From positions 2,833 through 66,832 of IMG/VR virus record IMGVR_UViG_649633004_000004: 64,000 bases of DNA; one strand, given 5' to 3'. Of the stretch, positions 17,699 through 41,960 are shown piece after piece (the first letter of the stretch is position 1; each line of letters opens with the position of its first letter). The notes below the pieces were generated by a model. That model did not search any database and was not told where the DNA came from. It saw nothing but the letters and a program-made list of their open reading frames with translations. The position numbers and the translations under genes are program-made. Source of the DNA: a virus (Duplodnaviria; Caudoviricetes).

Positions 17699-17747
17699 CC
17701 CTGTATAGGGTTCGACGCTGAGTCAGCATGCCGGAAAACTCCCGGAC
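17699..17747 (+). promoter_or_regulatory. Late promoter motif copy 1 (terminase small subunit)
   Basis: CCCTGTATAGGGTTCGAC...GGAAAACT-N7-ATG. Confidence 0.7.
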
Positions 17748-18524: not shown

Positions 18525-18526
18525 GC

Positions 18527-20134: not shown

Positions 20135-20140
20135 GGCCCC

Positions 20141-22408: not shown

Positions 22409-22418
22409 AGGCGGATCG

Positions 22419-22460
22419 CCCGGTATAGGGCGGGACTTCCGCTCTGCACCATCGGACACT
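22419..22460 (+). promoter_or_regulatory. Late promoter motif copy 2 (scaffold/capsid)
   Basis: CCCGGTATAGGGCGGGAC...GGACACT with the same spacing. Confidence 0.6.
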
Positions 22461-22583
22461 GTGCCCACCTGCTCGTGATGAGCCGGATTCCCACCGATGG
22501 AGAGCGAGAAGGCCGGGGCTTCGGCCCTGGCCCGATCCTCGAAACGGTGTGCCCACCAACAGACTCGGCCGGAGGCCGGGACC

Positions 22584-23582
22584 ATGGAGCACAGATTGAC
22601 AACTGAAGCACAGCAACTGCTCGATGCGGCATTCGCCGGAAAGCTGGATCTGGACGCGGACGCAAGCCAGAACAGCGCGGCCGCAGCCGCCGCCGAGGGC
22701 GCAGCAGGTCAACGGACCGAGGAGCCAAAGACCAACGCCGCCAATGACAAGCAGGCCGGCGCCGCCGCTCAGGATGACGAGCCCGCGGGCGCACCGATTG
22801 CCAGCAAGTCCGGCGCGTACACGATCCCCTACGAAAAGCTGACCCAGGCACGCCAGGAGCGCGACACCCTCAAGGCCGAGAACGAACAGCTCAAGGCCCA
22901 AGTGACGCAACTGACCGCTGCCCAGGCGCAGAACCTCGCTGCCGCACAGGAGCAGGCGCAGGCCCGGGCGGATGCCGGCCAGGCGCCCACCGAAGCGGAC
23001 AAGAACCTCGCCGTGGCCCAGGCTGCGGCTGCGCAGGGCGTGGATATGGCCCTGTTCGGGGATTTCAGCGAGGAGAGCATCGCCAACGGTGTTGCCGCCT
23101 TGGTGGAGCAGCGTGCGGCTGCGCTGGTGGATGCACGGCTGAAGGATGCATTGGCACCCTTCCAGCAGCGTGAAGCCAGGAGCAGCGCTGATGCCCACAC
23201 CCAGGCGATCTATGCCGTCCACAAGGACGCCGACGAGATCTACGAGTCCGCCGAGTTCAAGAAGTGGATGGGCGAGCAGCCCGGCTATGCCCGTGCGGCC
23301 ATCGAGCATGCACTGGCCAATGGCGAAGCCCCGCAGGTGATCGAGGTGTTCTCGACCTTCAAGGCTGCAACTGGCAAGACGGCACCGGCCGATGCAGTGA
23401 CCAAGGCGCTGGAAGCCGTGAAGGTGCAGCCGCCGGCCAGCTTGTCGGAGTTGCCCGGCGCTGTCGGCACCAGCGACGCCGAGCGCGTCACTGCATTGGC
23501 CGACGACCCCGCCAAGTTGCTGGACTTCATGGCCGGTTTGAGCCCTGAGAAGCAGAACCGGCTGATGAACAGCGTGGTGTAG
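22584..23582 (+). CDS. Scaffolding protein
   Basis: Acidic Ala-rich coiled coil, TIPYEKL motif; between portal and capsid. Confidence 0.7.
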   Translation: MEHRLTTEAQQLLDAAFAGKLDLDADASQNSAAAAAAEGAAGQRTEEPKTNAANDKQAGAAAQDDEPAGAPIASKSGAYTIPYEKLTQARQERDTLKAENEQLKAQVTQLTAAQAQNLAAAQEQAQARADAGQAPTEADKNLAVAQAAAAQGVDMALFGDFSEESIANGVAALVEQRAAALVDARLKDALAPFQQREARSSADAHTQAIYAVHKDADEIYESAEFKKWMGEQPGYARAAIEHALANGEAPQVIEVFSTFKAATGKTAPADAVTKALEAVKVQPPASLSELPGAVGTSDAERVTALADDPAKLLDFMAGLSPEKQNRLMNSVV

Positions 23583-26671: not shown

Positions 26672-28774
26672 ATGTACGGATTCAATCCCGAGAAGCATAA
26701 GGACCAGCCGAATGCCGAGTTGCCCAAGCTGGGTTTCAAGCCCCGCAAGAGCGCGCCGGCCGATGCGGCGGCGCCCGAGTTGCCGGCTTCCACCGCGCCT
26801 GGCAGGGGGTTTCGGCCGGGGATGAAGGAGGAGATGGCAGCGCCCTCCGTGGGACTGGGATTCCGGCCTGGTATGGGTGGGCCGGTGACGACTGATGCGC
26901 TTCCGGGCCTGGGCTTTCAGCCTTTCAAGGATGCGATGCGCGCCCAGGCGCAGAACCAGGCGCCCGATTCCATCCCCGCCATGGTCAAGCCGGGCGAGTT
27001 CGTGCTGCCGCCCGATACCGTGCACGCCATGGGAGGGGCGCAGGTTCTGCAGGGCGTGGTGGATGCCACGCACACGCCGGCGCCCGAGGCGGCCATCGTG
27101 CCGCGCGGGTTCAAGCCGCGGGCGTATTTCGCGGATGGTGGACTGGCCGGCCCCAAGCGCGAGGACTACGTGGGCAATGCCTTCAAGACCATGGAGCAGC
27201 AGCGCGCGGCGTCCGCAGCGCAGGCCCAGGCCGCCGGCGCCCAGGCCGAAGCCGATGGCGCAGCTGCGGCGTCGAGGAAGGTCGCGCAGACAGGCATGGC
27301 GCCGGCGCCGAATTCGCCGAGCAACACCTTCCCCGGTAATCGACTGCAGGGAACGAGTGGATTCAGTGGAGCGCCGATGGGCGCGGCGCCTGCTGCTGGC
27401 GCAGCCCCGGTGCCGGCGCCAGCTGCGCCCGCCACTGCGCCCACCGCCGCAGGCTTCATGCCTGGCACGCGCGCCGTGTTCAATGAGTCGGGCAAGGCCA
27501 TCGGCGACTTGGCCAGTCAGGGCCGCTATGGTGCGGCAGCCGGGGAGGCCGCGCGTGCGGCGCTGGCCTATGCGCCCGCCGTGGCAGATGACGTGATCGG
27601 CGGCGCGGCGCGCGCGGTGCTCCCGGCCGTTGTAGACGCCGGCAAGCAGTTCCTTGGCATGGGCAACACGCCGGCAGTCCCTCCCCCAGCGGCATCGACC
27701 GCCGTCGCCCGTCCAGGCGCATCGCCGGTCGCGCCCGCCGCGGCGCCGGCCACTGCCGCCGTTCCCGCATCCAGCGCGCCAGCGACCTCCAGCGGCGATG
27801 TCACCCGCGTGGGCAACAGCTACTCCGGCACCAACGTCAGCGGCGACATCACGGTCAACGGCCAGGCGCCTGCCGGCGGATTCATGGTGGCGGACGCCCC
27901 GCAAGCGCGCGGCTTTCGCCCTGGCATGGGCTCCTCCGCACCCGCGCCCGGCCAGGGGTTCGGGTTTCGGCCCGGGATGGGTGCTGCGGCGGATGGCCCG
28001 GCACCGCGGCTTGGCTTCGGGCCTGGGTCGGAACTCGCGCGCATTCAGGCCCAGGCCGCGCAACCCGGTTTCTCCGGCGTGATCGGCCAGCAGGGCGGCA
28101 ACGGCAACATGTGGAGCCGCACGCCCGAGCAGCAGCGGCGCGACGCCGAGGTGCAGGCCAGTTCCATCCATCGGCCAACTGCGGCCATCGGCGCTAACGC
28201 GCTGCGCTCACTCGATGCCCAGGATCTCGAAGGGGTGCGCGGCGCCAACGCGCTGGCGCAGGAGAACGTGCGCCAGGCCGGTGGACTGCAGCGCGAGGGC
28301 ATGCAGCAGCAGGGAGCCAACACCCGCGCAGCCATGAGCTCCGCCGTTGATCAGCAGCGCGTGAACCAAGAAGGCCGCAGGGTGGACAGCCAGGTCGAAG
28401 CGCAGGGCTTCGCGAACCGCCAAGCCGCGCAGCAGGAACAACTGCGCGCGATCCTCGCCGACCCCAAGGCGCCGATCACGCAGAAGATGGAGGCGCAGCG
28501 GACGTTGAGCGCCCTCGCCGGCCAGGGCGACAGGTGGAAGCCCGTGGCGCTGCAGGGCGGCACCGACGCCCAGGGCAATAAGACCGAGAGCATCCTGGGG
28601 GCAGTGAACGAGCGGACGGGGGAGATGCGGCGGATGGATGGGGGGGCACAGGGTGGGGGCACGATGCCGCCTGCAGGCGCGGTAGCGGCGTTGCGCGCCG
28701 ATCCAAAGAGGGCGGCGGATTTCGATGCCAAGTATGGCGCAGGCGCCTCACAGAGAGTGCTTGCGCAGCGCTAG
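26672..28774 (+). CDS. Internal virion (ejection) protein with GF(R/K)PG repeats
   Basis: Low-complexity Ala/Gly/Gln; DSIPAMVKPGEFVLP motif; C-terminal LRADPKRAADFDAKYGAGAS. Confidence 0.65.
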   Translation: MYGFNPEKHKDQPNAELPKLGFKPRKSAPADAAAPELPASTAPGRGFRPGMKEEMAAPSVGLGFRPGMGGPVTTDALPGLGFQPFKDAMRAQAQNQAPDSIPAMVKPGEFVLPPDTVHAMGGAQVLQGVVDATHTPAPEAAIVPRGFKPRAYFADGGLAGPKREDYVGNAFKTMEQQRAASAAQAQAAGAQAEADGAAAASRKVAQTGMAPAPNSPSNTFPGNRLQGTSGFSGAPMGAAPAAGAAPVPAPAAPATAPTAAGFMPGTRAVFNESGKAIGDLASQGRYGAAAGEAARAALAYAPAVADDVIGGAARAVLPAVVDAGKQFLGMGNTPAVPPPAASTAVARPGASPVAPAAAPATAAVPASSAPATSSGDVTRVGNSYSGTNVSGDITVNGQAPAGGFMVADAPQARGFRPGMGSSAPAPGQGFGFRPGMGAAADGPAPRLGFGPGSELARIQAQAAQPGFSGVIGQQGGNGNMWSRTPEQQRRDAEVQASSIHRPTAAIGANALRSLDAQDLEGVRGANALAQENVRQAGGLQREGMQQQGANTRAAMSSAVDQQRVNQEGRRVDSQVEAQGFANRQAAQQEQLRAILADPKAPITQKMEAQRTLSALAGQGDRWKPVALQGGTDAQGNKTESILGAVNERTGEMRRMDGGAQGGGTMPPAGAVAALRADPKRAADFDAKYGAGASQRVLAQR

Positions 28775-28784
28775 CTTGGCTTGA

Positions 28785-29591
28785 CTAGCCCAAAATCCCT
28801 GTGACGTTCAGACAACCGTCGCCACCGTGAACCACGTCGCCTGCAGCGAAGCGGATCAACGCTTCCGTTCCGGGGGTGATGGCCTGCTTCAGGGGGAGGT
28901 TGTAGGAGGCGTAGCTTTCCGGTGCAGCATTGCCGCACAACCCTGGAGCGTATTCGAACTGGATCACATTCATATTGAATTTTGAGTGATTCGCAACGTG
29001 GAGCCACACAATACCATTGGCAATCCACCAAGTCTGTTCGGCTTCCACCCTGCCAACGTCTAAGGTTGACCATCGCCCCAAGGAGTTGTCTTCGCGCGAT
29101 GGTTGTCTAACTTCAACGATTAGAAGATCCCCAGCTTCGCCTGCACTGCGGAGTGCTTTGACTCGTGCGGCATAGGCTTCACGGGATCGAGGGGCGGGGT
29201 GGTCAAATTGATCGAAAAAATTAGGTTGAGCCGCCTGTGCGGCAGGTTCAGTCGCTGGCTGCTCTTGCTGTACTGGAACCTGTTGCGCAGCCCGCTTCTG
29301 GTTGAATGTCTCCAGGTAAGGGGCCGCCACCACCAGCGCTAGCAGCACCCAGGCCAGCATGAAGAACCGCCCTGGCCATGCCGCCTTCGCTCGCTTTGTG
29401 AAAAAGAGCGCGTACAGGCCGAAGGCGACGCCAGCGATCACCAGCGGAGTTATCCACGTCGAGGCCCAGGTCAACGCACCCTGCGACCCGTACCAGACGT
29501 AAGGCGAGGCCAGCGCCAGGATCATCATGCCGACGATGTGGCGGGCAAAGCGTAGCGGCATGGATGGCTGGGTTTCTGCGGCTGTGCTCAT
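28785..29591 (-). CDS. 3-TM membrane protein with periplasmic domain carrying NFFDQFD (candidate superinfection exclusion)
   Basis: Three hydrophobic segments, KRAK cytoplasmic loop, AGGAGG RBS; antisense to the late operon. Confidence 0.75.
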   Translation of the reverse strand: MSTAAETQPSMPLRFARHIVGMMILALASPYVWYGSQGALTWASTWITPLVIAGVAFGLYALFFTKRAKAAWPGRFFMLAWVLLALVVAAPYLETFNQKRAAQQVPVQQEQPATEPAAQAAQPNFFDQFDHPAPRSREAYAARVKALRSAGEAGDLLIVEVRQPSREDNSLGRWSTLDVGRVEAEQTWWIANGIVWLHVANHSKFNMNVIQFEYAPGLCGNAAPESYASYNLPLKQAITPGTEALIRFAAGDVVHGGDGCLNVTGILG

Positions 29592-29721
29592 GTGTGCGTC
29601 CCTCCTGGGAGGGAATGTAGCAGGGCCTCATCTGGCGAGAGTGAGAGTAGAGTGGATTGTGAGTACCTTGCCACGGACTTAGAAATTGCATTGTGTAGCA
29701 TCACGTAAGAGGGCTACATAG

Positions 29722-30801
29722 ATGCGAAAAATTTCTCATAAAAGACAGATGTGGTTGCTACGCCGACAACGCGTGTGGTGTAAGGGGCATAAGTTTTTAG
29801 CAGGCGTTGCTAAGACCAAGACTAAGCCCAAGATCAAGCGCGATGTTTTGGTCGCCCCTGGGTATTTTTGCTTGGCGTCAAGCAACAACGTTCGAAGTGA
29901 GGCTTCAGCCCAGTTCCTTGCTTTTTTGCGATCAATCCGTGACTTTAGAGGATCTGGCCTTTGCATAGACATGAGTCGAGTGCAGCGGATGGTCGCGAAT
30001 GCAACCCTGCTGTTCAAGGCAGAGCTTTCATATCAAATACAGCGTGGGGTGAGCGTTGGAGGTGTAATGCCCCGTAAGGCGCGGACTCATCAGGTCCTCA
30101 CGCAGACCGGCTTGACCCGAATGTTGGGGCTTCCAGAATGCAAGCATGTTGACCGAGAAGACACTGTCCACTGGCGCCATGCTTCGGGATCGTGGAGCGT
30201 TACGCAGCCATCCCACTTGAGCTCCCTGTTGGGCGGTAATGAACAGCAGAACGCCTTGTTGTACACGGGGATGATCGAATCAGTCGCGAACTGTATTGAG
30301 CATGCCTATCGGGAACACCCCAAACGCAGAGCATTTGGCGCAGGGCACGATGGATGGTGGGGATTTCAGCAGTTACGCGACGGCGTACTCTCAACCTGCA
30401 TTTGTGATTTGGGGATTGGCATCGCTCGGTCGCTTCCGCTCAAGCTTGCAGACGAGCCGACCCTATACAAAAAGTTGGTGGCTCTCTTCAACCACCTGCG
30501 TGGAGATGACGTCAGGGGGATCCTAGCTGCGATCGAGTATGGTCGTTCGAGCACAGGCTTGGTACAGCGCGGGAAGGGCCTTCGGGATGCACACAGGGTG
30601 ATTGATGATGCGGGGGAAGGTCACTTCCACATCTTCAGCAACCAGGGCATGTACATCTACCGTAAAGAGCGGGGGAAGGAGCCGACCTCTGGGACGCGGC
30701 GATTGGCGGAATCTATTGAAGGGACAATCTACTACTGGCAGTACCCACTACAATCACAGGGTGCAGTAGGAGTCATTCCTATTGGAGGAGTACTTTCATG
30801 A
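29722..30801 (+). CDS. STAS-like + HATPase (RsbW/SpoIIAB-like Ser kinase fold) protein
   Basis: ESVANCIEHAY (N box), CDLGIGI (G1), RGKGL (G2), GTIY; no His-kinase H-box apparent. Confidence 0.8.
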   Translation: MRKISHKRQMWLLRRQRVWCKGHKFLAGVAKTKTKPKIKRDVLVAPGYFCLASSNNVRSEASAQFLAFLRSIRDFRGSGLCIDMSRVQRMVANATLLFKAELSYQIQRGVSVGGVMPRKARTHQVLTQTGLTRMLGLPECKHVDREDTVHWRHASGSWSVTQPSHLSSLLGGNEQQNALLYTGMIESVANCIEHAYREHPKRRAFGAGHDGWWGFQQLRDGVLSTCICDLGIGIARSLPLKLADEPTLYKKLVALFNHLRGDDVRGILAAIEYGRSSTGLVQRGKGLRDAHRVIDDAGEGHFHIFSNQGMYIYRKERGKEPTSGTRRLAESIEGTIYYWQYPLQSQGAVGVIPIGGVLS

Positions 30802-31121
30802 CTACCCTGAGCGTGGCTAGCCAGTTCAGTCGGTATCCTGGTGGCCGATTCAAGAGGATCAGTGAGAACAGTGGCGAGCAATTCCGAGAGGATGTGCTTC
30901 TCCCTGCGTTGCAAAAGGATGGCTTGGTCGTTGTCGATTTGGATGGCGTTGTTGGCTACGGAAGCAGCTTCTTGGAAGAGGTGTTCGGTGGAGTGGTTCG
31001 GGCTAAACGATGGAAATCACGCGAGGAGGTGAACAAGCATCTCCGCATCGCCTCAGAGAAAGAGAGTTGGTTGCGCGAGGCCAACATGTACATTGACGCA
31101 GCACTGGCACTTTTGAAGTAA
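30798..31121 (+). CDS. STAS-like domain protein (DUF4325-like)
   Basis: SGEQFRE..L, VVVDLDGVVGYGSSFLEEVFGG; ATGA-coupled to the kinase. Confidence 0.85.
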   Translation: MTTLSVASQFSRYPGGRFKRISENSGEQFREDVLLPALQKDGLVVVDLDGVVGYGSSFLEEVFGGVVRAKRWKSREEVNKHLRIASEKESWLREANMYIDAALALLK

Positions 31122-31138
31122 CGAGACACTGAGGTATC

Positions 31139-31621
31139 TTGTTGTTCGATGGCTTCCTAAAGTATTTACCATCCGTCCTCGTTGTTTTAGGATGGGCAAT
31201 TGCTTATAAATTGCAGGCGTTGCAGGCGCGAAGAAAGCTTCTACGCGAAGAAGTCGAGAAGACTCGGCAAGCGGTGGAGAAACTACGCGAGATCGCTTTG
31301 CAGTTCCATGTGAATGTGTATGACCCTGAAAAACGGGGTGCTATCGTGATTGCGCTGACAGACATTGAGCGGCGCTACGGCATGTTTCCAGAAATTGCTC
31401 GTGCGCGGAGCGAATGCTCCTTCAACGCGGTGGATATTAGCAAGACGCGCGTGGATGCCAAGTATCTAACGGAATTGAGGCAGGCAATCACACTTGAGCA
31501 CTTCGAAGATCCAGAAAGTGCTCCCCTGCAGCACGGGCATGAACAGCTTGAGCGGATAACGGTAGCAGCGTCCGCATTGATCGGCGAATTGGACAAGGTA
31601 TTGGTTGCCGCATTAGATTGA
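31139..31621 (+). CDS. Hypothetical protein with N-terminal TM
   Basis: LPSVLVVLGWAIAY TM then coiled coil; GAGG RBS with TTG start; third gene of the operon. Confidence 0.7.
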   Translation: MLFDGFLKYLPSVLVVLGWAIAYKLQALQARRKLLREEVEKTRQAVEKLREIALQFHVNVYDPEKRGAIVIALTDIERRYGMFPEIARARSECSFNAVDISKTRVDAKYLTELRQAITLEHFEDPESAPLQHGHEQLERITVAASALIGELDKVLVAALD

Positions 31622-31656
31622 GCCGCGCAGACAACGTGGCTCCTACCTCCGCAGTT

Positions 31657-31694
31657 CCCCCCGAAGTGGAGAAGCCCGCTTCGGGGGGGGCTTT
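31657..31694. terminator. Hairpin between convergent operons
   Basis: CCCCCCGAAG / CTTCGGGGGG inverted repeat. Confidence 0.5.
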
Positions 31695-32359
31695 CAATCG
31701 AAGTCTTCCAGCGGATCCGGCCGCTTAGAGCGTCCGATGAAGAGGCCGAATACGCGCCGATCCGGGAACCGCTCTCTTATGATGCGCTGGCACGCTTTGA
31801 AGTGGGTGCCATTGGTCAGCACATCGTCGAACAGCATGATCACCTCGCGAAGCGGAGTAGTCAGACATGCTTCATTGATATGAATGTGCTGGCACAAGTC
31901 ATCGGGGGTGGGGCGCTTTACGCCAGATTGGTATTCATGATGGGCCTGCATAGAGCGGTTCGCGAGCAGCAACTCGCGCACATCTAGCTTCGGCCGCACG
32001 AGGTTAAGCGCCTGTACAAGCCGGTCGTCGTAGAGTGGATCGGTCTTAGCTTTTGATGGCGGCACCGGGACTACAGTGAAACGCTCCAGCACTTCAGGCT
32101 TGAGTACCTGTCCCACATACGATGCCACCTGCGCGATGGCGCGTTCTTTGTAAACGTACTCGGACCGCCCCTTGCGATCAACGGATTTCTTGAAATTCGA
32201 GATCAGATTGTTGACAGGGCCAGCGCCGTAACCGCCTCCGGGTTGGTACTCTCCCAGGCAGTAGCACTCGTCATCGGGAGCTAGGTAGTAGTGCTCCGCC
32301 AGGATCGAGCCATCAATGCGAATTACCCGAAATGCCGAGGTGTTGCCTGATTTCGTCAT
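31694..32359 (-). CDS. PRTase-fold protein (ShosT-like partner)
   Basis: VVPVPPSK and MLFDDVLTNGTHF PRPP-binding motif; overlaps the DprA-like gene; start uncertain. Confidence 0.8.
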   Translation of the reverse strand: MTKSGNTSAFRVIRIDGSILAEHYYLAPDDECYCLGEYQPGGGYGAGPVNNLISNFKKSVDRKGRSEYVYKERAIAQVASYVGQVLKPEVLERFTVVPVPPSKAKTDPLYDDRLVQALNLVRPKLDVRELLLANRSMQAHHEYQSGVKRPTPDDLCQHIHINEACLTTPLREVIMLFDDVLTNGTHFKACQRIIRERFPDRRVFGLFIGRSKRPDPLEDFD

Positions 32360-33209
32360 AGTCGGATACGCGGATTGCGCCAGCGGCTTGCAATCGGGCC
32401 GGCCACTTCAGGCCGCGCTCGAAGCAGTTGTTCAAAATGAACAGTTTCCTACCTTGCTCCAGCGCCGCACGAGCCTGAGTCAGACTCCCGGATGTTTCGC
32501 CGGCTTCAACAATGATCGTCGCTTGCGTGAGCGCGGACATCGTTGCGTTGCGCTCTGGAAAGAAGAGTCGATTCCACTTGGGCGTCTGTTGCATATACCT
32601 GATGACCGGTACTTGGCTGACCAGCAGGTAGTTGCGGGCGATGTGCTCCTGGAGTTCGCTATTTTCCCGTGGATAGACTTCGCTGATGGGTGTACCGATG
32701 ACGCCCACTGTTTGCCCTCCGGCCTCAAGCGCGGCCGTGTGTGCTGCGGTATCAATGCCTTTTGCCAGACCCGACACCACGACCACCCCATCCGCAACGA
32801 GACACCTTGCGAGGCGACGAGCACGCCGAATGCCTTCATCGCTGGCCTCGCGGCTTCCCACCAGCGCAACGCGCCAGGGCGTGTACAGCAGGTCTAGATT
32901 TCCCCGGTAGTACAGGAATTGCACCGGATGCCTAGCAGAGCGCAGTTCCTCCGGGTACTCCAGCGTCCCTTGGACAACGAATCCGGCATCTTCGATGTGC
33001 TTCTTGCGGAAGATTTCCAACACTTCCCGCGCACGTTTGATTGCTTGATCGGAACTCACGAACTGCGACGGCAGATCGTTGTGGCTCTTGCGGAACAACT
33101 CTGCCAGCGTCTTGAACGACTGGCCGTCCTGCGACCAAAGTTCTTCGTAGGCCCCAAGCTCAAGAGCCGGGGACACCGCTTGCTGCGCGAACAGCTCAGA
33201 TGTGATCAC
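32313..33209 (-). CDS. dprA: DprA/Smf-like protein (ShosA-like)
   Basis: VALVGSR, VVSGLAKGIDTAAH, FPERN, VEAGETSGSL motifs; AAGGAG RBS with GTG start. Confidence 0.88.
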   Translation of the reverse strand: MITSELFAQQAVSPALELGAYEELWSQDGQSFKTLAELFRKSHNDLPSQFVSSDQAIKRAREVLEIFRKKHIEDAGFVVQGTLEYPEELRSARHPVQFLYYRGNLDLLYTPWRVALVGSREASDEGIRRARRLARCLVADGVVVVSGLAKGIDTAAHTAALEAGGQTVGVIGTPISEVYPRENSELQEHIARNYLLVSQVPVIRYMQQTPKWNRLFFPERNATMSALTQATIIVEAGETSGSLTQARAALEQGRKLFILNNCFERGLKWPARLQAAGAIRVSDYDEIRQHLGISGNSH

Positions 33210-33226
33210 TTCGCACTCCTTGAGAA

Positions 33227-33246
33227 TACTGTGAAAATATACAGTA
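33227..33246. promoter_or_regulatory. LexA (SOS) box upstream of the DprA-PRTase operon
   Basis: TACTGTGAAAATATACAGTA matches CTGT-N8-ACAG with TA flanks, ~20 bp before the GTG start. Confidence 0.8.
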
Positions 33247-33308
33247 TTTTGATCCGTCGTACTTCATCTTTACCCACGGGGCATTTTGCCATCCGCTGGT
33301 GAGTTGAC

Positions 33309-33356
33309 CCCCGTATGGGGTTTGTCCATCATCCCCTCGATTGAGAGAGTGGGGGG
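33309..33356 (+). promoter_or_regulatory. Late promoter motif copy 3 (giant protein)
   Basis: CCCCGTATGGGGTTTG...GAGAGT-N6-ATG. Confidence 0.6.
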
Positions 33357-36300
33357 ATGGCTGACAACTACTTCGACCAGTTCGACTCCCCTGCGGCTAC
33401 CGAGAGCGCTAGTAAAGGCAACTACTTCGACCAGTTCGACGAGAAGCCTGCTGCCCGTTCCGCAGCCCGTAGCGCAGGCGATTCCGCCATTGCTGCCGGT
33501 ACTGGCGTCATTCAGGGCGTCAAGATGCTCACCGACGTGGCGGGCGCGGACAACGCTGTATCGCGCACCTTGGGCAATGCATCGGACGCGCTGACCGATC
33601 TGGAATCCCCCTACCGCAAGGCGCAAAAGCAAGAGCGCGCCGCCAAGATCAAGGCCGCTGAGGCGACGGGAAGCACCTGGGAAGAAATCAAGGCCCACGT
33701 TGGCGCGTTCGCGGATGCGCCCCTCGACACCACGCTGAACGCGCTGGGCACGTCGGCGCCCACGCTCGCGGCTGCGGCGCTGTCGGGCGGCAGTAGCGTT
33801 GCGGCGCAGATTGCTGCGCGCGCGGCGCCCGTGGTGCTGGGCGTGGCGCAGGGCGCGGGCAATATCAAGGGCCAAGTCCATGAGGCGGTGAAGCAAAAGC
33901 ACCTGGAGGCGGGCGTCAGCGAGGCTGAGGCGACGCAGCGCGCGGATGCCGCCCAAGCCTACGACGGCAGCAACCTGGGTTCCATCGCCCTTGGCGGCGC
34001 GCTGGGCGGGCTGGCTGGCGGCACGGGCGCTGAGGCTGCAGCACGCCGGTTGCTGGGCCGCAAGGTTGCCGCCGAAGCTGCGGAACATGCAGCCCCCGGC
34101 GTGATTCGCTCTGCCGTGACAGGCGCGGCCAAGGAAGCTCCGATGGAGGCGCTCCAGGGCGGCCAGGAGCGGCATGCGTCCAACGTGGCCTTGCAGGGCG
34201 AGGGCTTCGACGTGCCGACATGGCAGGGCGTGGCCGGGCAGGCGGCGTTGGAAGGGTTGGCTGCTGCTCCGATGGGCGGTGGATTCGGAGTCGCGGAAGG
34301 CATGCATGCGCGCGGCCGACAAACCAGCGACCCCATCTCCGAAGGTGTTGCAGCGCGCCAGGCGGCGGAGGCGGCAGCAGCGGACGCCCAGGCCAAGGCG
34401 GATGCGGCCGTGCCGCCATGGACCACGGATCTGGGCGCCGCTGACCCGAATGCGCAGGCCGCAACTGCTGCGGCCACGGATGCCAACGCGCCGCGCGTGG
34501 CTGAAGCGCAGTTCGAGACTCAGCCTGGCGCAGCGCCGGACTATGGCAACGGCATCGATTACCAGCGGGAGTTCGACACGGGCGGGATGGAGCTGGCCGA
34601 AGGCGAACCGCGGGCTCTGGGATTTAACCCGCTGGCGGGCACGCCGACCGTATTTGCAGATGGCTCCGTGGCGCTCAATGGTGAGCAGGAATTCCAGCAC
34701 CGCACAGGTGTCGCATCGCCTTCGCAGCGCATGGGCCTCGACGCGCGCACCGGATCGCTGTCGGCCGCCGCGGTGCAGGCGGTGGACTCTGGCGCGCATG
34801 CGCAGATGCAGCAGGCCGCGGCGCAGGTGCAGGCGGCGCAGGAAGCCAAGAGAGCCAAGCCGACACAGAAAAAGGAGCAGGAACCGCAGGCTATGCCTGA
34901 TGTTGATCCGCAAACCGGGGAGATCGCCCAGGGGCCCGGCATGGCCGCGTGGTCGGATGCCGATCTCTCCACCGCCTTCCGCGGTGCTCAGTCGCGCGAT
35001 GTGCGCCTGCAGCTTGCCAAGGAGATGCAGCGCCGGCGTGAGCAGCGGGCCCTGCAGGCGGAGTTGGATGCCGAGCAGTCCGGCACCGTGCCTGGCGCCG
35101 ATGGCACCGATACCGCATTCGCCAGCGTCACCGAGGACGCGGGCGCACTCCCGGCCCGTGCGGCCACCACTACCGAAGGACAGATGAATGGCGCTCAAGC
35201 CGATCAAGCCCAGCAAGCAGCAGCGCAACCGCCGCAAGGACGAGCAGCGCCGGCAGGACAACCAGCAGCGCGGGGGCTGAGCGATGGCGCCCCGGCTCAG
35301 GACGTTGGAGCGCAAGCAGCGCCAGCGGCAGGTCCGCAAGCTCAAGCGCAAGGTGGCGAAGTTGAAGCGCTGCGCCAGAAGCTGCGCGACGTAGAGGCCA
35401 GGATCATCGCCGCGGCACCCGGCGCCATGGGGCAGGGCGGCGGCGACATCGAGGCGGCCATGAAAAGCCGCAAGGTGCCTGTGACGCTCAAGGCGCAGCG
35501 CAAGAAGCTGGTGGATCAAGTGCGCACTGCGCAGGCGACCGAGGTGAAGACCTTCGCACCAGAAACCGGAACGCTGGGCATCCCGCGGGCCGACATGCCC
35601 CAGGTGCCAAGCCAGTCCCATGGCGGCTTGGTCAAGCACCTAAACGCCCAGGGCATCGCGCACGAAATCATGACCGTGGATGCGGCTGAGTTGAAGCCCA
35701 CCCAGGCTGAATACTCGCCGGCCAAGGTGGAGGCGGCCAAGACGGCCGGTGGCGACCGCGCAGTGATCGTGTCCAACGATGGCCACATCATCGACGGGCA
35801 CCACCAGGCCATGGCGGCAGCACAGGAAGGCAAGCCCGTCAAGGCCATCGTGCTGGATGCACCCGTGGACCAGGCGCTGGAGGCGGTGAAGGCGTCGCCC
35901 AGTGCGCAGGCCAGTAAGCCTGAGACGCCTGACTACGAGGCCCAGGTAGCAGAGATGCTGGACCCGGCCAGCCCGCGCACAAGCGTGACCATTGCGGCCG
36001 GACATGAAGTCCCCGAATCGGTATATCGCGCGCAGACCAGTCTCCGCGCTGCCCCAGGCTACACGATGAAGCCGGGTAAAGATGGAACTGTCATACTGAC
36101 GAGCACCGGCAAGAAGTCGGAAACCAGCCGTAAGGCCAGCAACGGCGAGCCCCCCGCATCACCATCCGCCCGCATCGAAGACTTCGGCGAGACGCTGCGC
36201 GGCGCCCGCAAGATGCTCTATGCCGAGGCCTATGCCGATGGCATGGCCAAGGCCAAGGAGCTCGACGCCAAGGCGCACCCGCTGTCCAAGACCTGGCCTG

Positions 36301-39300
36301 ATCCCGACTACGCCAAGCTGCTGGAGGGCGGCGCCGCGCCCGAGGCCGTGGCCCTGGTGCGCGCGCTGCGCGATGCCGTGCCCACCAAGCCGCAGTCCTC
36401 CTGGAAGCTCAAGGGCTGGACGCAGAAGATGCAGGCGCTGCGCGGCTTCGCCGAAGACATCCTGGCCGGGCGCGCAGAGGCCGCCGCCGTCACGCGAGAG
36501 CTGGAGCGCGCCGGCATCTCGGACGTGGCCAACCAGGCGGCGCTGTACGAGGCCGTGGGCCACGACCGATCGCTCAAGGGCGTCATCCTGTCGAAGGGCC
36601 TGTATTCGATGTACGACGGTGTGCGCCACGACCCGCCGCGCACTATCTGGACCGTGGCGCGCGAGGCCAAGGCCAGCGCCTTGGGCAACTGGCCGCGCGA
36701 ACTGGCCAAGGGCGACACCCGGGAGGCGGCCATCGCAGCGTTCAAGCAGCGCGCCGCCGAGCTGCTGGCCGAAGAACAGGCGCCAGCGCGCGGCGCCACC
36801 TTCGAGATATACGGCAAGCGCGCCGGCGGCGCCCGCGCGTTCTTCATCGGCAAGAAGATCGGCCGCAACGTGGCCGAGCTGAAGGGCGGCTTCGCTGACC
36901 TCAAGACTGCGCGCCAGTACAAGGCCGACCACCAGGCCGAACTGGAAGACCTGCTGGCCAAGTACAAGGCGGTGCCGCCCGTGCGCAACGCCCAGAACGC
37001 GCCGCGCATCGGCCAGGACTACCGCAAGGGCGCCGACGTGACGCCCGAACAGTTCCAGGAGGCCTTCGGCTTCCGGGGCGTGCAGTTCGGCAACTATGTG
37101 GAGGGCGGGCGCCGCCAGCATGACCTGAACCGCGCCTACGACGCACTGATGGACCTGGCCGGCGTGCTGGAACTGCCGCCGCGGGCGCTGTCGCTGGGCG
37201 GGCGCCTGGGGCTGGCGTTCGGTGCACGCGGCTCAGGGGGCGTGGATGCGGCCGCGGCCCACTACGAGCGCGGCGAGGTGGTCATCAACCTGACCAAGCG
37301 CCAGGGCGCGGGCAGCCTGGCGCACGAGTGGTGGCACGGCCTGGACAACTACTTCTCGCGCCAGCGCGGCGACGGCGTGGGGATGATGACCGAGGAGTCG
37401 CGCCGCGGCGACGGCGTGCGCGAGGAAATGCGCGCAGCCTTCCGCGACGTGGTCTCCGCGATCAACCGCACCGGCATGCAGGAGCGCAGCCGCAAGCTGG
37501 ACGACCGGCGCACCAAGGAATACTGGACCACCAAGCCGGAGATGTCGGCGCGTGCATTCGAGAGCTACGTCATTGCCAAGCTGCAGGACCAGAGCGCAGG
37601 CAACGACTACCTGGCCAACGTGGTGGGCGACGGCGCGTTTGCGCTGGAGGGCGCCTACCCGTACCCGACGGCGGGCGAGCTGCCGCAGATCCGAGAGGCG
37701 TTCGATGCGTTCTTCCAGACGGTGGAGACGCGGCGCGGGGAGGATGGGGCGGAGGTGCTGTTCCGCCGCGACGCGGCCGCACCGTTCGACTACGACGCCA
37801 TGCAGCGCGTCGTGCTGGGGAAGGCGCCGGGCTTCTCGGCCGTGGCGCGCGAGCAGGCCGTGTCTTCCGTGCGCGGCACGGTGGACGTCATCCGTGCTGC
37901 CTGGGGCTCGAACGCGCCGGAGGTGGTGGTGGCGTTCGACATGCAGGACACGGCTGTGCCAGAAGCCGCGCGCCAGGCGGACCTGCGCCAGCGCAGCGGC
38001 GGTGCGCGCGGCGCGCCCGAGGGTTTCTACTACCGGGGCAAGGCGTACCTGATGGCGTCGCGCCTGAACACGCCTGCCGATGCTACCCGCGTGTTGCTCC
38101 ACGAGGTGCTGGGCCACCACGGCCTGCGCGGTAAGTTCGGCAAGGACCTGGACAACATCCTGAACCAGATCGCCACCATGCGCAAAGACGAGGTGGCAGC
38201 CAAGGTGCAGGAATACGGGCTGCGTGGTGTGCAGGGCCTGAACGTGCGGGAGGCCGCCGAGGAGGTGCTGGCCGAGATGGCGGAGAAGAACCCGCAACTG
38301 CACTTCGTGCGGCGCGCGGTGGCGGCGATCCGCAACTGGCTGCGCGCGCATGTACCCGGTTTCAAGAACCTGCGCCTGACGGATGACGACATCATCCAAG
38401 CCTACATCCTGCCGGCGCGCGGCTGGGTTGAACGCGGCGGTCGAGAGCAGGCGGCCGGAGGACCGCATGACAGGGTCGTGAACTTCGCGCGTCATCCCGG
38501 TTTCAGCGCTGCGGTCGATGCCGCAGTCAAGGCCGGGACGATGGGTGAGACCGGGGGGCGCGCGCACATCGAAATCGGCACGTTGTCGCCGGCGCTGGCT
38601 GCTGCGGGCATCCCCGCTGGGGATCTCAAGACATCGGCCAAGGTGCTGCAGAAGGTGGTCTTCGACCACGGCGTACCGCCCAGCGTAGTCAAGCGTATCC
38701 CGGAACTGTTGGAGAGGCCGGTGATGGTGTTCCACTCCGCTACAGTGGAAGGGAGCTTCGTGGCGGTCACTTCGGAGATGGTGCGTGGTGCGCCGTTGAT
38801 CGTTGCAATCAGCCCAGAGACTACGACAGGCGGCGTCTCGTTGAACTTCGTGCCTAGCCTGTATCCACGCGATGACCTGCAGGCCATCCAGCGCTGGCTG
38901 AATGCCACCAAGCCGGGTGAGCAGTTGCTGACCTATTTGGACAAAGAGCAAAGCCCCGCATGGTTTGGCTCAACCAGGCTCCAATTGCCTGGGGAATTCC
39001 GAACTACGCAGGGCTTGCAGTCCCGAAATATAGCAACCCAGGCAGATGTAGTCAACGCAGCGGGTGGCGAGGGCGATATCCCGATGTTCAGCCGATCGCG
39101 CATGGCCGAGCTCAAGGACGGCGCGCTCGCGCAGATCGACGCAGCCCTGAGTCACCCTGGCAAGGTCAGCCTATGGGACAAGACCGTGGGCACCATGCGT
39201 CACCTTGCCGAGCGTGCACCGGCCTTCAAGCCGGTGTTCGAGTCGGCACAGCGCCAGATCGATGATGTGGCCATGCTGGCCAACGACGCTGCCGACGTTG

Positions 39301-41960
39301 CGCCGCGCCTGCTGCCGCGCGTGGACAAGCTGCGCGACTTGGCCAAGAGGCCCATCAGCGCAGAGGACAACAAGGCCGTTGCTCGCCCGCTGTTCGAGGG
39401 CACGCTGCTGTGGGGGCGGGATCTGGACGGACAGCCCGCGCTGGCGGACGACCTGCAGAAGAAGTACGCCAACCTGGGCGCCGACGAGAAGGCCCAGCTT
39501 CTGCTGCGCGCCGGGCGCATCGACCCCGGCGTGCTCGCGATGTGGCGTGGGATGCCGCTGGCGCAGTTCGAGGCGGCGGTGAGCTCGCGCTTCGAGAGCA
39601 AGGTGATCAAGGCGGGCGTGGTCTGGGAGCCGCGCGAGCTGCGCGCGATGTTTGGACTGAACGACCAGCAGATGGGCCTGTACCAAGAGGCGCGCGGGGC
39701 AATCGACCGCTCCATCGACATGACGGCGCGTGCCGACATGCTGCGTTCCTTGGGCGAGAAGTACACGCCCATGCGCGCCGCGACGCTGGAGGCGCCGAGC
39801 CTGACCGATGCGCTGACGCTGCTGGTGGAGACGCTGGAGCAGGAGGCTCAGGCCACGCCGGACGCGCGCGAGCATCTGGCCGATCTGATGCACGGGCTGC
39901 GCCAGCGCTACGACAAGGCTCGGGAGCTGATGGCCCAGGGTTACGCGCCGCTGTCGCGTTTCGGCCGCTATACGCTGGATGTGGTGGACGCCCGGGGCGA
40001 GCGGCTGTACTTCGGCATGTATGAGTCGATGGCCGACTCCAACCGGGCCAAGATCCAGATGGCCAGCGCTTTTCCTGGCGCCACAGTCTCCCAGGGCACG
40101 ATGAGCGCCGAGGCGTACAAGCTGTTTGCAGGAATCACCCCGGAGAGCCTGGAGCTGTTCGGCAACATGCTGGGCCTTGATGCGGAGGGTAACAAAGCCC
40201 AGGACAAAGCGTTCCAGCAGTACCTGCAACTGACCAAGAACAACCACAGCGCGTTGAAGCGGCTGATCCACCGCAAGGGCATCGCAGGCTACAGCGATGA
40301 TGTAGGCCGCGTACTTGCGAGCTTCATCTACAGCAACGCGCGCCAGGCGGCGGCCGGCCTAAATGCGGGTGTGATGGATTCCGCGATCAACGCCATCCCG
40401 AAGGAGCAGGGCGAGCTGCGGGATGTGGCCATGGGGCTGCGCTCCTACATCCAGGACCCGCAGGAGGAAGGCCAGGCCGTACGGGGCATGCTATTCGCCC
40501 AGTACCTGGGCGGCTCGGTGGCCTCGGCCTTCGTGAACACCACGCAACCGTTCGCCGTGACGCTGCCATGGTTGAGCCAGTTCGGCGGCATGAAGAAGGC
40601 GGGAACACAGCTCGCGCGCGCGCTCAAGGACATGGGCACGCGGGGGTTCCAGTACCAAAGCGACTTGGCCCACGCGCTCAAGCAGGCCGAGGATGACGGC
40701 ATTGTCTCGCCGCAGGAGATCCACCAGCTCATGGCCCAGGCGCGCGGCGCGGGCGCGCTGCGGGTGGGTGATGGCACGCGGCGGGGCAACGCGCGCGCCG
40801 CGGCAGCCAACGCCTGGGAACGCACCAAGGTGGCCTGGGGCCAGCCCTTCGCGCTGGCCGAGCAGTTCAACCGGCGCTCCACCTTCATTGCCGCCTACCG
40901 GCTGGCTCAGCAGCAGGGTATGGACAAGCCGGCCGAGTTCGCGCGCCGCGCGGTACTGGAGACGCAGTTCCTCTACAGCAAGGCCAACAAACCGCGCTGG
41001 GCGCGCGGTGCCGTGGGCGGCACGTTGTTCACCTTCAAGACTTACAGCGTGAGCTACCTGGAGCTGATGCAGCGGATGTGGACGCAGGGCGGACCCGAGG
41101 GCAAGCGTGCCGTGGGCTGGGCCGTGGCCATGCTGCTGCTGATGTCTGGCGCGGGCGGCCTGCCGTTCATGGAGGATCTGGAGGATCTGATCGACGGTGC
41201 GGGCCAGCTCATGGGCTACAACGTGAGCGCCAAGCAGTGGCGCAAGCAGGTGCTGCGCGACGTGCTGGGCAAGGAGCTGGCCGACTTCGTGGAGCAGGGC
41301 GTCTCGGGGCTGCCCGGGGCGCCAGTGGACGTGTCCGGCCGCCTGGGCATGGGCAATCTGATCCCTGGAACTGGACTGCTGATGACCAAGCAGAGCCGCG
41401 AGCGCGATCTGCTGGAAGTGGCTGGACCTGCTGGCGACCTGGTGGCGCGCGGGTTCTCGGGAGCACGCAAGCTGATCACGGGCGATGTAGCCGGCGCAGC
41501 GCTGGAGGTGGCGCCAACGGCCGTGCGCAATGCAGCCAAGGGCGCCGACATGGCTTCCAGCGGCATGTACAAGGACACCAAGGGTTACAAGGTGATCGAC
41601 ACGACGCTGGACGAGGCGCTGGCCAAAGCCATCGGCTTCCAGCCGCGCAGTGTGGCCGAAGTGCAGGAGGCCAACAGCTTCATGCAACGCTCGAAGTCTT
41701 TCTACACGCAGACCAGCAGCGACATCAAGGCGCAGTGGGCGCAGGCACTGTTCGAGAAAGACGGCGCGGCTCTGGAGCGGGTGCGCAGGCGCCTGGAGGC
41801 CTGGAACCGGGACAACCCGGAACAGCGCATCGTGGTGAGGATGCCCGATGTGTGGAAGCGTGTGCGGGAGATGGGCAAGGACCGCACCCAGCGAATCGCA
41901 GCCGCCGCGCCCAAGGCGTTGCGCCAGCAGATGCGGGAGATGGCGAGGGAGGCTGGGTAG
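33357..41960 (+). CDS. Giant polyvalent internal virion protein (ParB-like, LPD-type, two HExxH, nuclease-like insert, PLxRFG)
   Basis: 2867 aa; 2x NYFDQFD; LKPTQ..IIDGHH; EDFGETLRGARK; AHEWWHGLD; LHEVLGH; APLSRFG. Confidence 0.85.
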   Translation: MADNYFDQFDSPAATESASKGNYFDQFDEKPAARSAARSAGDSAIAAGTGVIQGVKMLTDVAGADNAVSRTLGNASDALTDLESPYRKAQKQERAAKIKAAEATGSTWEEIKAHVGAFADAPLDTTLNALGTSAPTLAAAALSGGSSVAAQIAARAAPVVLGVAQGAGNIKGQVHEAVKQKHLEAGVSEAEATQRADAAQAYDGSNLGSIALGGALGGLAGGTGAEAAARRLLGRKVAAEAAEHAAPGVIRSAVTGAAKEAPMEALQGGQERHASNVALQGEGFDVPTWQGVAGQAALEGLAAAPMGGGFGVAEGMHARGRQTSDPISEGVAARQAAEAAAADAQAKADAAVPPWTTDLGAADPNAQAATAAATDANAPRVAEAQFETQPGAAPDYGNGIDYQREFDTGGMELAEGEPRALGFNPLAGTPTVFADGSVALNGEQEFQHRTGVASPSQRMGLDARTGSLSAAAVQAVDSGAHAQMQQAAAQVQAAQEAKRAKPTQKKEQEPQAMPDVDPQTGEIAQGPGMAAWSDADLSTAFRGAQSRDVRLQLAKEMQRRREQRALQAELDAEQSGTVPGADGTDTAFASVTEDAGALPARAATTTEGQMNGAQADQAQQAAAQPPQGRAAPAGQPAARGLSDGAPAQDVGAQAAPAAGPQAQAQGGEVEALRQKLRDVEARIIAAAPGAMGQGGGDIEAAMKSRKVPVTLKAQRKKLVDQVRTAQATEVKTFAPETGTLGIPRADMPQVPSQSHGGLVKHLNAQGIAHEIMTVDAAELKPTQAEYSPAKVEAAKTAGGDRAVIVSNDGHIIDGHHQAMAAAQEGKPVKAIVLDAPVDQALEAVKASPSAQASKPETPDYEAQVAEMLDPASPRTSVTIAAGHEVPESVYRAQTSLRAAPGYTMKPGKDGTVILTSTGKKSETSRKASNGEPPASPSARIEDFGETLRGARKMLYAEAYADGMAKAKELDAKAHPLSKTWPDPDYAKLLEGGAAPEAVALVRALRDAVPTKPQSSWKLKGWTQKMQALRGFAEDILAGRAEAAAVTRELERAGISDVANQAALYEAVGHDRSLKGVILSKGLYSMYDGVRHDPPRTIWTVAREAKASALGNWPRELAKGDTREAAIAAFKQRAAELLAEEQAPARGATFEIYGKRAGGARAFFIGKKIGRNVAELKGGFADLKTARQYKADHQAELEDLLAKYKAVPPVRNAQNAPRIGQDYRKGADVTPEQFQEAFGFRGVQFGNYVEGGRRQHDLNRAYDALMDLAGVLELPPRALSLGGRLGLAFGARGSGGVDAAAAHYERGEVVINLTKRQGAGSLAHEWWHGLDNYFSRQRGDGVGMMTEESRRGDGVREEMRAAFRDVVSAINRTGMQERSRKLDDRRTKEYWTTKPEMSARAFESYVIAKLQDQSAGNDYLANVVGDGAFALEGAYPYPTAGELPQIREAFDAFFQTVETRRGEDGAEVLFRRDAAAPFDYDAMQRVVLGKAPGFSAVAREQAVSSVRGTVDVIRAAWGSNAPEVVVAFDMQDTAVPEAARQADLRQRSGGARGAPEGFYYRGKAYLMASRLNTPADATRVLLHEVLGHHGLRGKFGKDLDNILNQIATMRKDEVAAKVQEYGLRGVQGLNVREAAEEVLAEMAEKNPQLHFVRRAVAAIRNWLRAHVPGFKNLRLTDDDIIQAYILPARGWVERGGREQAAGGPHDRVVNFARHPGFSAAVDAAVKAGTMGETGGRAHIEIGTLSPALAAAGIPAGDLKTSAKVLQKVVFDHGVPPSVVKRIPELLERPVMVFHSATVEGSFVAVTSEMVRGAPLIVAISPETTTGGVSLNFVPSLYPRDDLQAIQRWLNATKPGEQLLTYLDKEQSPAWFGSTRLQLPGEFRTTQGLQSRNIATQADVVNAAGGEGDIPMFSRSRMAELKDGALAQIDAALSHPGKVSLWDKTVGTMRHLAERAPAFKPVFESAQRQIDDVAMLANDAADVAPRLLPRVDKLRDLAKRPISAEDNKAVARPLFEGTLLWGRDLDGQPALADDLQKKYANLGADEKAQLLLRAGRIDPGVLAMWRGMPLAQFEAAVSSRFESKVIKAGVVWEPRELRAMFGLNDQQMGLYQEARGAIDRSIDMTARADMLRSLGEKYTPMRAATLEAPSLTDALTLLVETLEQEAQATPDAREHLADLMHGLRQRYDKARELMAQGYAPLSRFGRYTLDVVDARGERLYFGMYESMADSNRAKIQMASAFPGATVSQGTMSAEAYKLFAGITPESLELFGNMLGLDAEGNKAQDKAFQQYLQLTKNNHSALKRLIHRKGIAGYSDDVGRVLASFIYSNARQAAAGLNAGVMDSAINAIPKEQGELRDVAMGLRSYIQDPQEEGQAVRGMLFAQYLGGSVASAFVNTTQPFAVTLPWLSQFGGMKKAGTQLARALKDMGTRGFQYQSDLAHALKQAEDDGIVSPQEIHQLMAQARGAGALRVGDGTRRGNARAAAANAWERTKVAWGQPFALAEQFNRRSTFIAAYRLAQQQGMDKPAEFARRAVLETQFLYSKANKPRWARGAVGGTLFTFKTYSVSYLELMQRMWTQGGPEGKRAVGWAVAMLLLMSGAGGLPFMEDLEDLIDGAGQLMGYNVSAKQWRKQVLRDVLGKELADFVEQGVSGLPGAPVDVSGRLGMGNLIPGTGLLMTKQSRERDLLEVAGPAGDLVARGFSGARKLITGDVAGAALEVAPTAVRNAAKGADMASSGMYKDTKGYKVIDTTLDEALAKAIGFQPRSVAEVQEANSFMQRSKSFYTQTSSDIKAQWAQALFEKDGAALERVRRRLEAWNRDNPEQRIVVRMPDVWKRVREMGKDRTQRIAAAAPKALRQQMREMAREAG
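33365..33440 (+). repeat. 22-bp direct repeat encoding NYFDQFD twice
   Basis: CAACTACTTCGACCAGTTCGAC at 33365-33386 and 33419-33440. Confidence 0.85.

Follow-up and report, generated by a model that had tools for sequence, protein, structure and literature searches.

A prophage membrane protein bearing a peptide of the phage's own giant ejection protein: a candidate peptide-mimic decoy for superinfection exclusion

Introduction

It has yet to be explained by what means the exclusion proteins of prophages recognise the ejection machinery of a short-tailed phage arriving at the lysogen. A close described case, cited here like the other published systems from excerpts of the papers, is SieA of phage P22, an inner-membrane protein with three transmembrane (TM) segments that is encoded after the last ejection gene and blocks injection; mutations that escape it fall in the C-terminal regions of gp20 and gp16, and the gene is accessory, being carried by 22 of 66 P22-like phages (PMC10883804). 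The present analysis concerns a 64,000-nucleotide stretch (the window) of a Caudoviricetes record, IMGVR_UViG_649633004_000004, and in it a gene for a predicted membrane protein, P0001, that bears the peptide NFFDQFD. A near copy of this peptide stands twice at the N-terminus of a giant virion protein encoded further along the window, and between the matching peptides of this and related loci and the C-terminal tail of P3, a late protein encoded upstream of the giant, there is a three-way co-variation. Judged from these comparisons, P0001 is on balance probably a superinfection-exclusion decoy that mimics the peptide and caps the P3 tail of related phages, most likely jamming their DNA-injection machinery when they attack the lysogen.

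T7 builds its periplasmic tunnel by means of the gp16 N-terminal region, to which the C-terminal parts of gp15 are bound and ‘stitched’ through a 70-residue ‘molecular tape’ that follows the transglycosylase domain (PMC8954989). Capsid targeting sequences, described for P1 DarB and T4 IPIII, are short N-terminal signals on huge, injected anti-defence virion proteins, and they act in the cytoplasm during assembly (PMC9024508). In the HXS system, a gatekeeper protein of the periplasm arrests the entry of phage DNA; this effector is encoded by the host, owes its maturation to radical-SAM enzymes and acts over a broad range, and it is presumed to bind incoming DNA electrostatically (PMC13128918).

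P0001 resembles SieA in its three predicted TM segments and in being a prophage gene that adjoins a candidate ejection-protein gene. It lacks, however, the SieA motif FxRYPxEAxxFNK, and searches in Pfam, PHROG, PADLOC and 50,697 phage records revealed no sequence relation. According to the excerpted text, the SieA motif is predicted to be cytoplasmic and the SieA types do not differ in target range, whereas the active element proposed here is a periplasmic, class-specific peptide of the target phage, displayed on interchangeable and even soluble bodies; those excerpts describe no mimicry for SieA. The likeness to the T7 gp15–gp16 junction lies in the giant, which belongs to the lineage of gp16, or internal virion protein D (IVP-D) (PMC4819975). 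In place of the T7 tape, the contact proposed here would pair a 35-residue tail of exchangeable class with two short peptides right at the start of the giant, and P3 has no detectable similarity to gp15. The N-terminal position typical of capsid targeting sequences is found for the peptide in the giant, but no exported mimic or class system appears in the excerpted account of those signals. HXS likewise stops DNA entry from the periplasm, although its excerpted description contains no mimic of a phage peptide.

A literature search, which did not extend to supplementary files, turned up neither a tail-peptide code nor an exclusion protein bearing a copy of an ejection-machinery peptide. Exclusion at the DNA-entry step is a known kind of protection; the modular peptide-mimic mechanism proposed here would be new.

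Co-variation of the exported peptide, the giant protein and the P3 tail

A degenerate DNA pattern for N[FY]FDQFD matched the window three times, twice in the giant (MADNYFDQFD...GNYFDQFD) and once in the antisense membrane gene, as a first-pass annotation made from the letters of this DNA had reported; 100 dinucleotide-preserving shuffles of the window gave zero matches. In six frames of the whole 66,832-bp record the same three sites were the only ones, even under the loose pattern FD.FD. The annotation was also right that the codons differ between the genes, the membrane-gene copy reading AATTTTTTCGATCAATTTGAC and the giant copies AACTACTTCGACCAGTTCGAC. Where decoy and giant share a residue across loci, the codon is identical in 162 of 288 cases, compared with 80 of 151 between the giant's own two copies, and for this reason it is the peptide, not the DNA, that appears to be conserved. 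The same codon comparison of decoy and giant gave no sign of recent gene conversion.

Related loci were then compared, 79 in all (the window, L001–L018 and L038–L097), 67 of them with a complete P3 and 56 non-identical. Sixty came from a scan seeded on a conserved N-terminal stretch of four P3 sequences; a nine-sequence P3 alignment had been discarded as the seed because it was too divergent. Conservation of the motif across homologues had been named by the first-pass annotation as a test of its idea. What was found is that the peptide is replaced rather than conserved, and that the swap occurs jointly in the exported and the giant protein (Table 1). Ten peptide classes could be defined, each on 2–4 unrelated carriers.

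Table 1. Peptides at the N-terminus of the giant protein and on the exported protein of the same locus
Locus	Giant protein	Exported protein
Window	NYFDQFD, twice	NFFDQFD
L004	NFFDQFD and NYFDQFD	NHFDQFD
L005	NFFDQYD and NFFDQFD	NFFDQFDR, at the extreme C-terminus
L003	LKPFSGNLD and LRPFSGALDGE	LKPFQGKLDGE, then stop
L007	FSYEDAFP, twice	SFSYEEAFPTK, then stop
L011	IDNILNGAP and IDEILKDAPP	IDEILKDAPAYQPAR, then stop
L009, L010	DWEKG and DWERG	VDWEKG...
L014	DWWKSG and GWWKAG	EWWKKGSTPLN, then stop

The end of P3 changes with the peptide. Tails of the form ...LRADPxRAAxFDAKYGxGA... accompany class FDQFD, ...GQVYQTxRGxARWNG... accompanies xSYEDAF, ...AVWDGKQWVP accompanies DWEKG, ...GGKPVYEDAxGxRF accompanies PFxGxLD, and ...EQRxxxLRKLG[FY] accompanies IDEILKDAP. 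The tail class agrees with the doubled giant peptide in 35 of 35 loci and with the last peptide of the convergent exported open reading frame (ORF) in 44 of 44, while giant and exported peptides agree in 29 of 29; these counts are descriptive, because the classes were defined after reading the same loci. Each class occurs with 2–4 carrier types, 2–3 P3 backbones and 1–3 kinds of giant domain following the peptide, and the gap between the P3 and giant genes ranges from 0.3 to 7.2 kb.

A test free of any classes was also made, in which the best 7-residue window under BLOSUM62 was scored between the N-terminus of each giant and the C-terminal 70 residues of the longest convergent ORF. The mean over 41 loci was 31.1 for cognate and 21.3 for non-cognate pairs, and 0 of 20,000 permutations reached the observed sum, a figure inflated by the fact that the loci are related and do not form independent samples. 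The co-variation of the membrane gene with the giant, and the C-terminus of P3 as the partner, had both been put forward from the window alone; the first is seen in all 29 of the 56 loci where both peptides could be classed, and the second, a guess at the time, fits the behaviour of the tail here and in the separate scan described below. In the other 1.45 million ORF residues of the loci hardly any matches to the motif patterns occur, FDPxTA, a loose pattern, being the exception. When all ORFs of the window's genome were set against five whole relatives, none beyond the P3 tail tracked the FDQFD class. A few early-region ORFs are common only to the window's genome and one relative, G001.

A separate scan of viral contigs was seeded with NFFDQFD-coding DNA only. 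It returned more than 119 stretches, of which 80 loci were analysed, and all the counts rest on these 80. Most matches are two N-terminal copies in proteins of 430–3200 aa, on many kinds of contig. An A-type tail, defined as [NDE]P, 4–7 residues and F[DEKRQ]x[KE][YF][GNR] at the end of the immediately upstream ORF, precedes 50 of 57 non-redundant motif proteins, compared with 10 of 2887 background ORFs; seven further motif proteins, located at a locus edge, were left out of the 57. In the 57 scored pairs the gap between the upstream ORF and the motif protein is mostly 0–12 nt. One of the upstream proteins has lytic-transglycosylase-type matches, and some proteins of the IVP-C type are described as having a lytic-transglycosylase likeness (PMC4819975, in excerpt). 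The full triad was met again in L141, on a carrier of the SP-short type described below, and SP-short carriers in L123 and L165 terminate in NFFDQFD. The giants of L110 and L130 start with NFFDQFDPSTA[RK]P, present twice, in which the classes FDQFD and FDPxTA are fused, and in these loci the directly upstream ORF is not P3-like.

The candidate decoy protein

P0001 runs from three hydrophobic segments through a Q/P/A-rich linker to NFFDQFD and a further ~135 residues. In the translation RFARH precedes the first hydrophobic segment, and KRAKAAWPGR lies between the second and third; the topology of P0001, like the signal peptides of the other carriers, was judged by eye. The AlphaFold2 (AF2) model has helices at residues 11–27, 38–63 and 74–103. 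Residues 104–125 fall below 50 in predicted local distance difference test (pLDDT), and the mimic peptide lies in a disordered stretch with values of 35–47, ahead of a confident helix and beta-sandwich domain (residues 134–268, mostly above 90). The anchor (residues 1–95) is the most conserved part of the family, and short forms without the C-terminal domain consist of anchor, linker and terminal peptide only. The lower-GC C-terminal domain with a cysteine pair noted in the first-pass annotation was borne out, the GC fraction being 0.54–0.57 over this domain compared with 0.70–0.76 in the flanking late genes, and C219 and C260 being invariant in 9 of 9 full-length homologues.

The family is otherwise little represented in databases. 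P0001 belongs to no Pfam, PHROG or PADLOC family and had zero matches among 50,697 phage records; its 24 relatives come from metagenomes and Comamonadaceae genomes, with one copy on a 4.6-Mb contig. A Foldseek search with the model gave no match at E <= 0.001, and the best VIA score (Z 6.1) fell on the helical anchor alone, leaving the C-terminal domain without an informative fold match. Other peptides occur in the family: the full-length members P0009, P0010 and P0012 show VNDILKELPP, and P0027 shows VNWDDFTPVDD. In a further member, P0011, a DnaJ domain replaces the first TM segment and is followed by NYFDQFD and the C-terminal domain.

Carriers, predicted periplasmic display and accessory status

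In many loci the convergent gene lies outside the P0001 family, and four types of carrier were seen. The first is the P0001-type 3-TM anchor, with or without the C-terminal domain; the second is another 3-TM body with a weak likeness to DUF805; the third and fourth, SP-short and SP-long, are Cys-rich bodies with a Sec signal peptide. The SP carriers start with K/R, a hydrophobic run and A-x-A, followed by [AG][DN][YF]A.C..., and Pfam searches of the carriers outside the P0001 family returned only DUF805 and Yip1, both below the cut-offs. Because Cys-rich carriers with Sec signals bear the cognate peptide at their end, the display is predicted to be periplasmic, which fits the conserved Cys pair and the basic loops of P0001. 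The periplasmic location of the motif, deduced in the first-pass annotation from the loops of P0001, gains from these homologous peptides on Sec-signal and Cys-rich carriers, as judged by eye; the membrane tether that it had made part of the mechanism is not a requirement, given that soluble periplasmic carriers exist.

Carriers may hold more than one peptide. In 11 of the 56 loci peptides of more than one class are present, the last always being the cognate one, and the SP-long carrier P0054 bears three classes in series. The SP-long body is 75–93% identical among most relatives, and its tail is hypervariable. Most SP-long carriers (P0028–P0060) have the precomputed Pfam label PF28034.1. A further set of carriers (P0015, P0018, P0049, P0059 and P0060) ends in Cys-bracketed loops (DGKPCT.ITEFLGEC..., C.G..PGPWC.YQ), for which a counterpart was not found in the giant proteins.

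The exported copy is accessory, and the pair of tail and giant peptide belongs to the phage proper, because no decoy peptide is present in 6 of the 35 loci in which the giant bears its peptide, the carrier being truncated or absent, nor in the Pseudomonas phages H66 and USP_18. These cultured F116-like phages have the same arrangement, with a tail (GGYRFKGG...NWEK) and a doubled KPWE[ES]F, and no third copy of the peptide was found anywhere in their genomes. In H66 (L100) the P3 homologue occupies 9559–11646 and the giant 11646–23009; USP_18 is L099, and the tail reads GGYRFKGGNPADQNNWEK[VI]. In L061, L078, L079 and L096 an SP-type carrier ends after ...AALNLCAHQPR(G/D)GAH, the peptide having been lost, and the giant keeps IDDILKGAP or IDDIMKDAP; these carriers look like decayed decoys.

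P3 and the giant virion protein

The P3 gene follows the terminase, portal, major head and small structural genes. Its product falls in phrog_11341, of unknown function and with no named family, and its homologues share 30–57% identity. The P3 homologue of H66 and of USP_18 lies immediately next to the giant gene. A P3-type gene directly upstream of IVP-D, similar in size and fast-diverging, is what makes P3 a candidate IVP-C analogue. The middle of the protein is an Ala/Pro/Gly-rich low-complexity region. IVP-C proteins are typically helical over most of their length and occur in about 8 copies. For the last 100 residues of P3 AF2 predicts mixed strands and helices, with the tail as three short helices (pLDDT 72–84), and the tail model had zero fold matches. 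That the membrane gene converges on P3 had been correctly noted before, but P3 does not end at ...AKYGAG as then supposed and continues to ...GAGASQRVLAQR. The N-terminus of P3 (26672–27150, + strand) contains a repeated G-F-[KRQN]-P motif, as MYGFNPEK, LGFKPRK, GFRPGM (twice), GFQPFK and GFKPRA, retained in all P3 homologues including gp59 of H66. These repeats may be a second, invariant docking motif directed towards another partner.

The giant matches LPD5 (7.6e-47), LPD1 (1.6e-19) and MuF_C (2.6e-17) in Pfam, and its C-terminal region is DarB-like (phrog_10089, 3.5e-39). Residues 1898–2861 are 58% identical to gp60 of H66, which the H66 record names as a PLxRFG protein verified in the virion by mass spectrometry; relatives of the giant are annotated as PLxRFG proteins too. 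Hardies et al. place H66 gp60 among the homologues of T7 IVP-D (gp16), which is an internal protein of the virion, belongs to the transient tail and also has domains bound for the cytoplasm (PMC4819975, in excerpt). With its domains associated with polyvalent proteins and its DarB/PLxRFG-type C-terminal region, the giant is, by sequence, a T7 gp16 (IVP-D) homologue that also has predicted effector domains. A doubled peptide stands at the N-terminus of 35 related giants. It was not obvious by eye in orf71 of VT2-Sakai, a protein that the excerpted text of PMC4819975 places in the F116 group.

Record and gene neighbourhood

The 66,832-bp IMG/VR record is classed as a provirus and contains integrases; the window is a temperate podophage-like provirus, and its host belongs to the Comamonadaceae. 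The features discussed are collected in Table 2. Between P3 and the giant, GC falls to 0.48–0.63 (28.7–33.35 kb), compared with 0.70–0.76 in the flanking late genes. The membrane gene is separated by a 10-nt gap from P3, on which it converges, and by five ORFs (29722–33209) from the giant; this refines the earlier placing of the gene between the two ejection genes. The site beside P3 is conserved in related loci, which run from P3 through the convergent membrane gene and a variable island to the giant gene.

Table 2. Positions of the features in the window
Feature	Position	Strand	Description
P3	26672..28774	+	700 aa; late protein upstream of the giant; candidate IVP-C (gp15/gp20) analogue
P3 C-terminal tail	28661..28771	+	residues 664–700, ...AVAALRADPKRAADFDAKYGAGASQRVLAQR; variable module, proposed peptide receptor
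Low-GC accessory island	28785..33209	.	decoy gene, three + strand ORFs (29722–31621) and Shosta pair, between two late genes
Decoy gene P0001	28785..29591	-	268 aa; 3-TM anchor, disordered linker with mimic peptide, C-terminal beta-sandwich domain
Periplasmic helix and beta-sandwich domain (predicted)	28788..29192	-	residues 134–268; C219 and C260; optional
NFFDQFD mimic peptide	29202..29222	-	decoy residues 124–130, in the flexible linker
Membrane anchor	29307..29591	-	residues 1–95; carrier type ‘3TM-A’; predicted N-in, C-out
ShosT	31694..32359	-	E 1.4e-44 (PADLOC); Shosta anti-phage system
ShosA	32313..33209	-	E 2.7e-93 (PADLOC); DprA-like/SLOG
Giant virion protein	33357..41960	+	2867 aa; polyvalent, IVP-D-like; LPD5, LPD1, MuF_C; DarB-like C-terminus
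Two NYFDQFD copies	33366..33440 (33366–33386, 33420–33440)	+	giant residues 4–10 and 22–28; proposed docking peptide

The three + strand ORFs of the island encode proteins of 359 aa (phrog_3364), 107 aa (DUF4325, STAS-like) and 160 aa (no family). A PADLOC search of these three ORFs was negative; they may form another accessory or defence module. A promoter and terminator scan of 28500–33500 gave 4 sites where 2.2 were expected, a number not above that of the shuffles.

Proposed mechanism and alternative explanations

The final ~35 residues of P3 would make up a small receptor module, to which the giant would offer two copies of a ligand of 6–9 residues at its extreme N-terminus. By analogy with T7, the contact would be made in the periplasm as the ejected proteins assemble a DNA conduit across the envelope, and a docking peptide at this point fits the stitching of gp15 by gp16. 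P0001 would be expressed in the lysogen and would export a third copy of the ligand in membrane-anchored form, relatives using another anchor or soluble bodies. On injection by a phage of the same class, its P3 tails would be taken up by the decoy, leaving the giant nowhere to dock and the DNA unable to enter. A phage could escape only by changing tail and ligand together, and this need would account for the split into at least ten classes; a carrier with several peptides in a string would exclude a wider range of phages.

Besides the relatedness of the loci, several observations count against this mechanism. Tail and C-terminal decoy peptide may co-vary by linkage alone, because they lie ~100 bp apart in converging genes; this objection is escaped only by the match to the distant giant gene and by the independent scan. 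Of 10 homologues with the C-terminal domain, only 4 carry N[FYH]FDQFD, another 3 carrying ILKELPP and 3 having no peptide that could be classed. One locus, L006, pairs a giant of the W-x-x-F-x-P type (TDWSNFTP, TNWNDFKP) with a membrane protein bearing VNDILKELPP, a non-cognate display of the IDEILKDAP class; it is the only mismatch seen, and it stands outside the 56 loci because its P3 is cut off at the locus end. The topology of P0011 is puzzling, because the DnaJ domain is cytoplasmic and seemingly only two hydrophobic segments follow it; if there really are two, its peptide would be cytoplasmic. The promoter scan found no site upstream of the decoy gene in 28500–33500. Four of 24 listed sequencing runs were compared as contigs, and none reached 28736–29509, a result that bears on expression in neither direction. 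Finally, the mass-spectrometry marks in the H66 record cover gp54 and gp60, but not the P3 homologue gp59.

An alternative that is unlikely, yet deserves the most attention, is that the doubled peptide is a capsid-targeting signal, by which the giant would be loaded, in the cytoplasm and through the P3 tail, into procapsids; the periplasmic copies would then be a handle on ejected P3, through the same tail surface, or have an unrelated purpose. For P1 DarB, according to the excerpted report (PMC9024508), the first 30 residues are enough to bring a reporter to the capsid; the giant itself has a DarB-like PHROG match, and the pair of tail and peptide also occurs in phages without any decoy. A contact confined to the cytoplasm would, however, leave the exported mimics that track the classes unexplained. 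In T7 the equivalent contact is made in the periplasm (PMC8954989, in excerpt), and the muralytic-type domain of one upstream partner points to a periplasmic role as well. Targeting would change what the contact does for the phage, not necessarily how the decoy acts, and the two roles are not exclusive.

It is improbable that the peptide instead docks the giant on a host factor of the periplasm or inner membrane, which the exported copies would saturate in a form of receptor masking. All classes are short peptides with acidic and aromatic residues, and a conserved target in the host could explain why NFFDQFD is so widespread (more than 119 viral contig stretches). A single host factor sits poorly, though, with ten classes among phages of one host family that switch together with a phage-encoded tail, with the A-type tail found beside NFFDQFD in 50 of 57 independent cases, and with multi-class carriers, which would imply several distinct targets.

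T4 RI has been proposed to act as a periplasmic sensor of superinfection. A comparable sensor, capturing the incoming P3 tail and reporting superinfection, for instance to delay lysis, would suit the anatomy of P0001, whose optional C-terminal domain and membrane anchor could transmit a signal. This is very improbable: many carriers are soluble and have no means of signalling across the membrane, the minimal form is anchor, linker and peptide only, and the gene is antisense to the late operon. That the peptides have no function and are recombination leftovers of a cassette of P3 tail, convergent gene end and giant start is hardly credible, for while tail and C-terminal peptide are adjacent in the DNA, and tail and giant N-terminus are contiguous in H66 and USP_18, so that a single ancestral cassette is plausible, the decoy lies on the opposite strand with different codons, the same class recurs on four unrelated carriers, the match spans up to 7 kb of unrelated genes, and the motif background is near zero in the 1.45 million ORF residues, FDPxTA excepted.

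Conclusions

For the interaction between prophages and incoming short-tailed phages, the locus offers a testable answer to the question of recognition, in a phage group other than that of P22: the excluder would bear the target's own docking peptide. The co-variation also indicates where two consecutive ejection proteins are likely to touch in a very widespread phage group, the Pseudomonas F116-like phages among them, and for this contact nothing structural is known. More tentatively, and with somewhat less than an even chance of being right, an exchangeable ‘address code’, made of the C-terminal tail of an IVP-C-like protein and the doubled N-terminal peptide of an IVP-D-like giant, may join podophage ejectosomes and define exclusion groups. 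Prophages would secrete carriers of one to three such peptides against competitors, and the resulting arms race would diversify the junction. If the code is real, it would amount to a natural, modular and re-programmable inhibitor of phage entry. Because the active element is a peptide of 6–9 residues on interchangeable carriers, specificity should be predictable from sequence and alterable by a peptide swap, and specificity that can be read in this way would help in reading prophage-mediated resistance from genomes.

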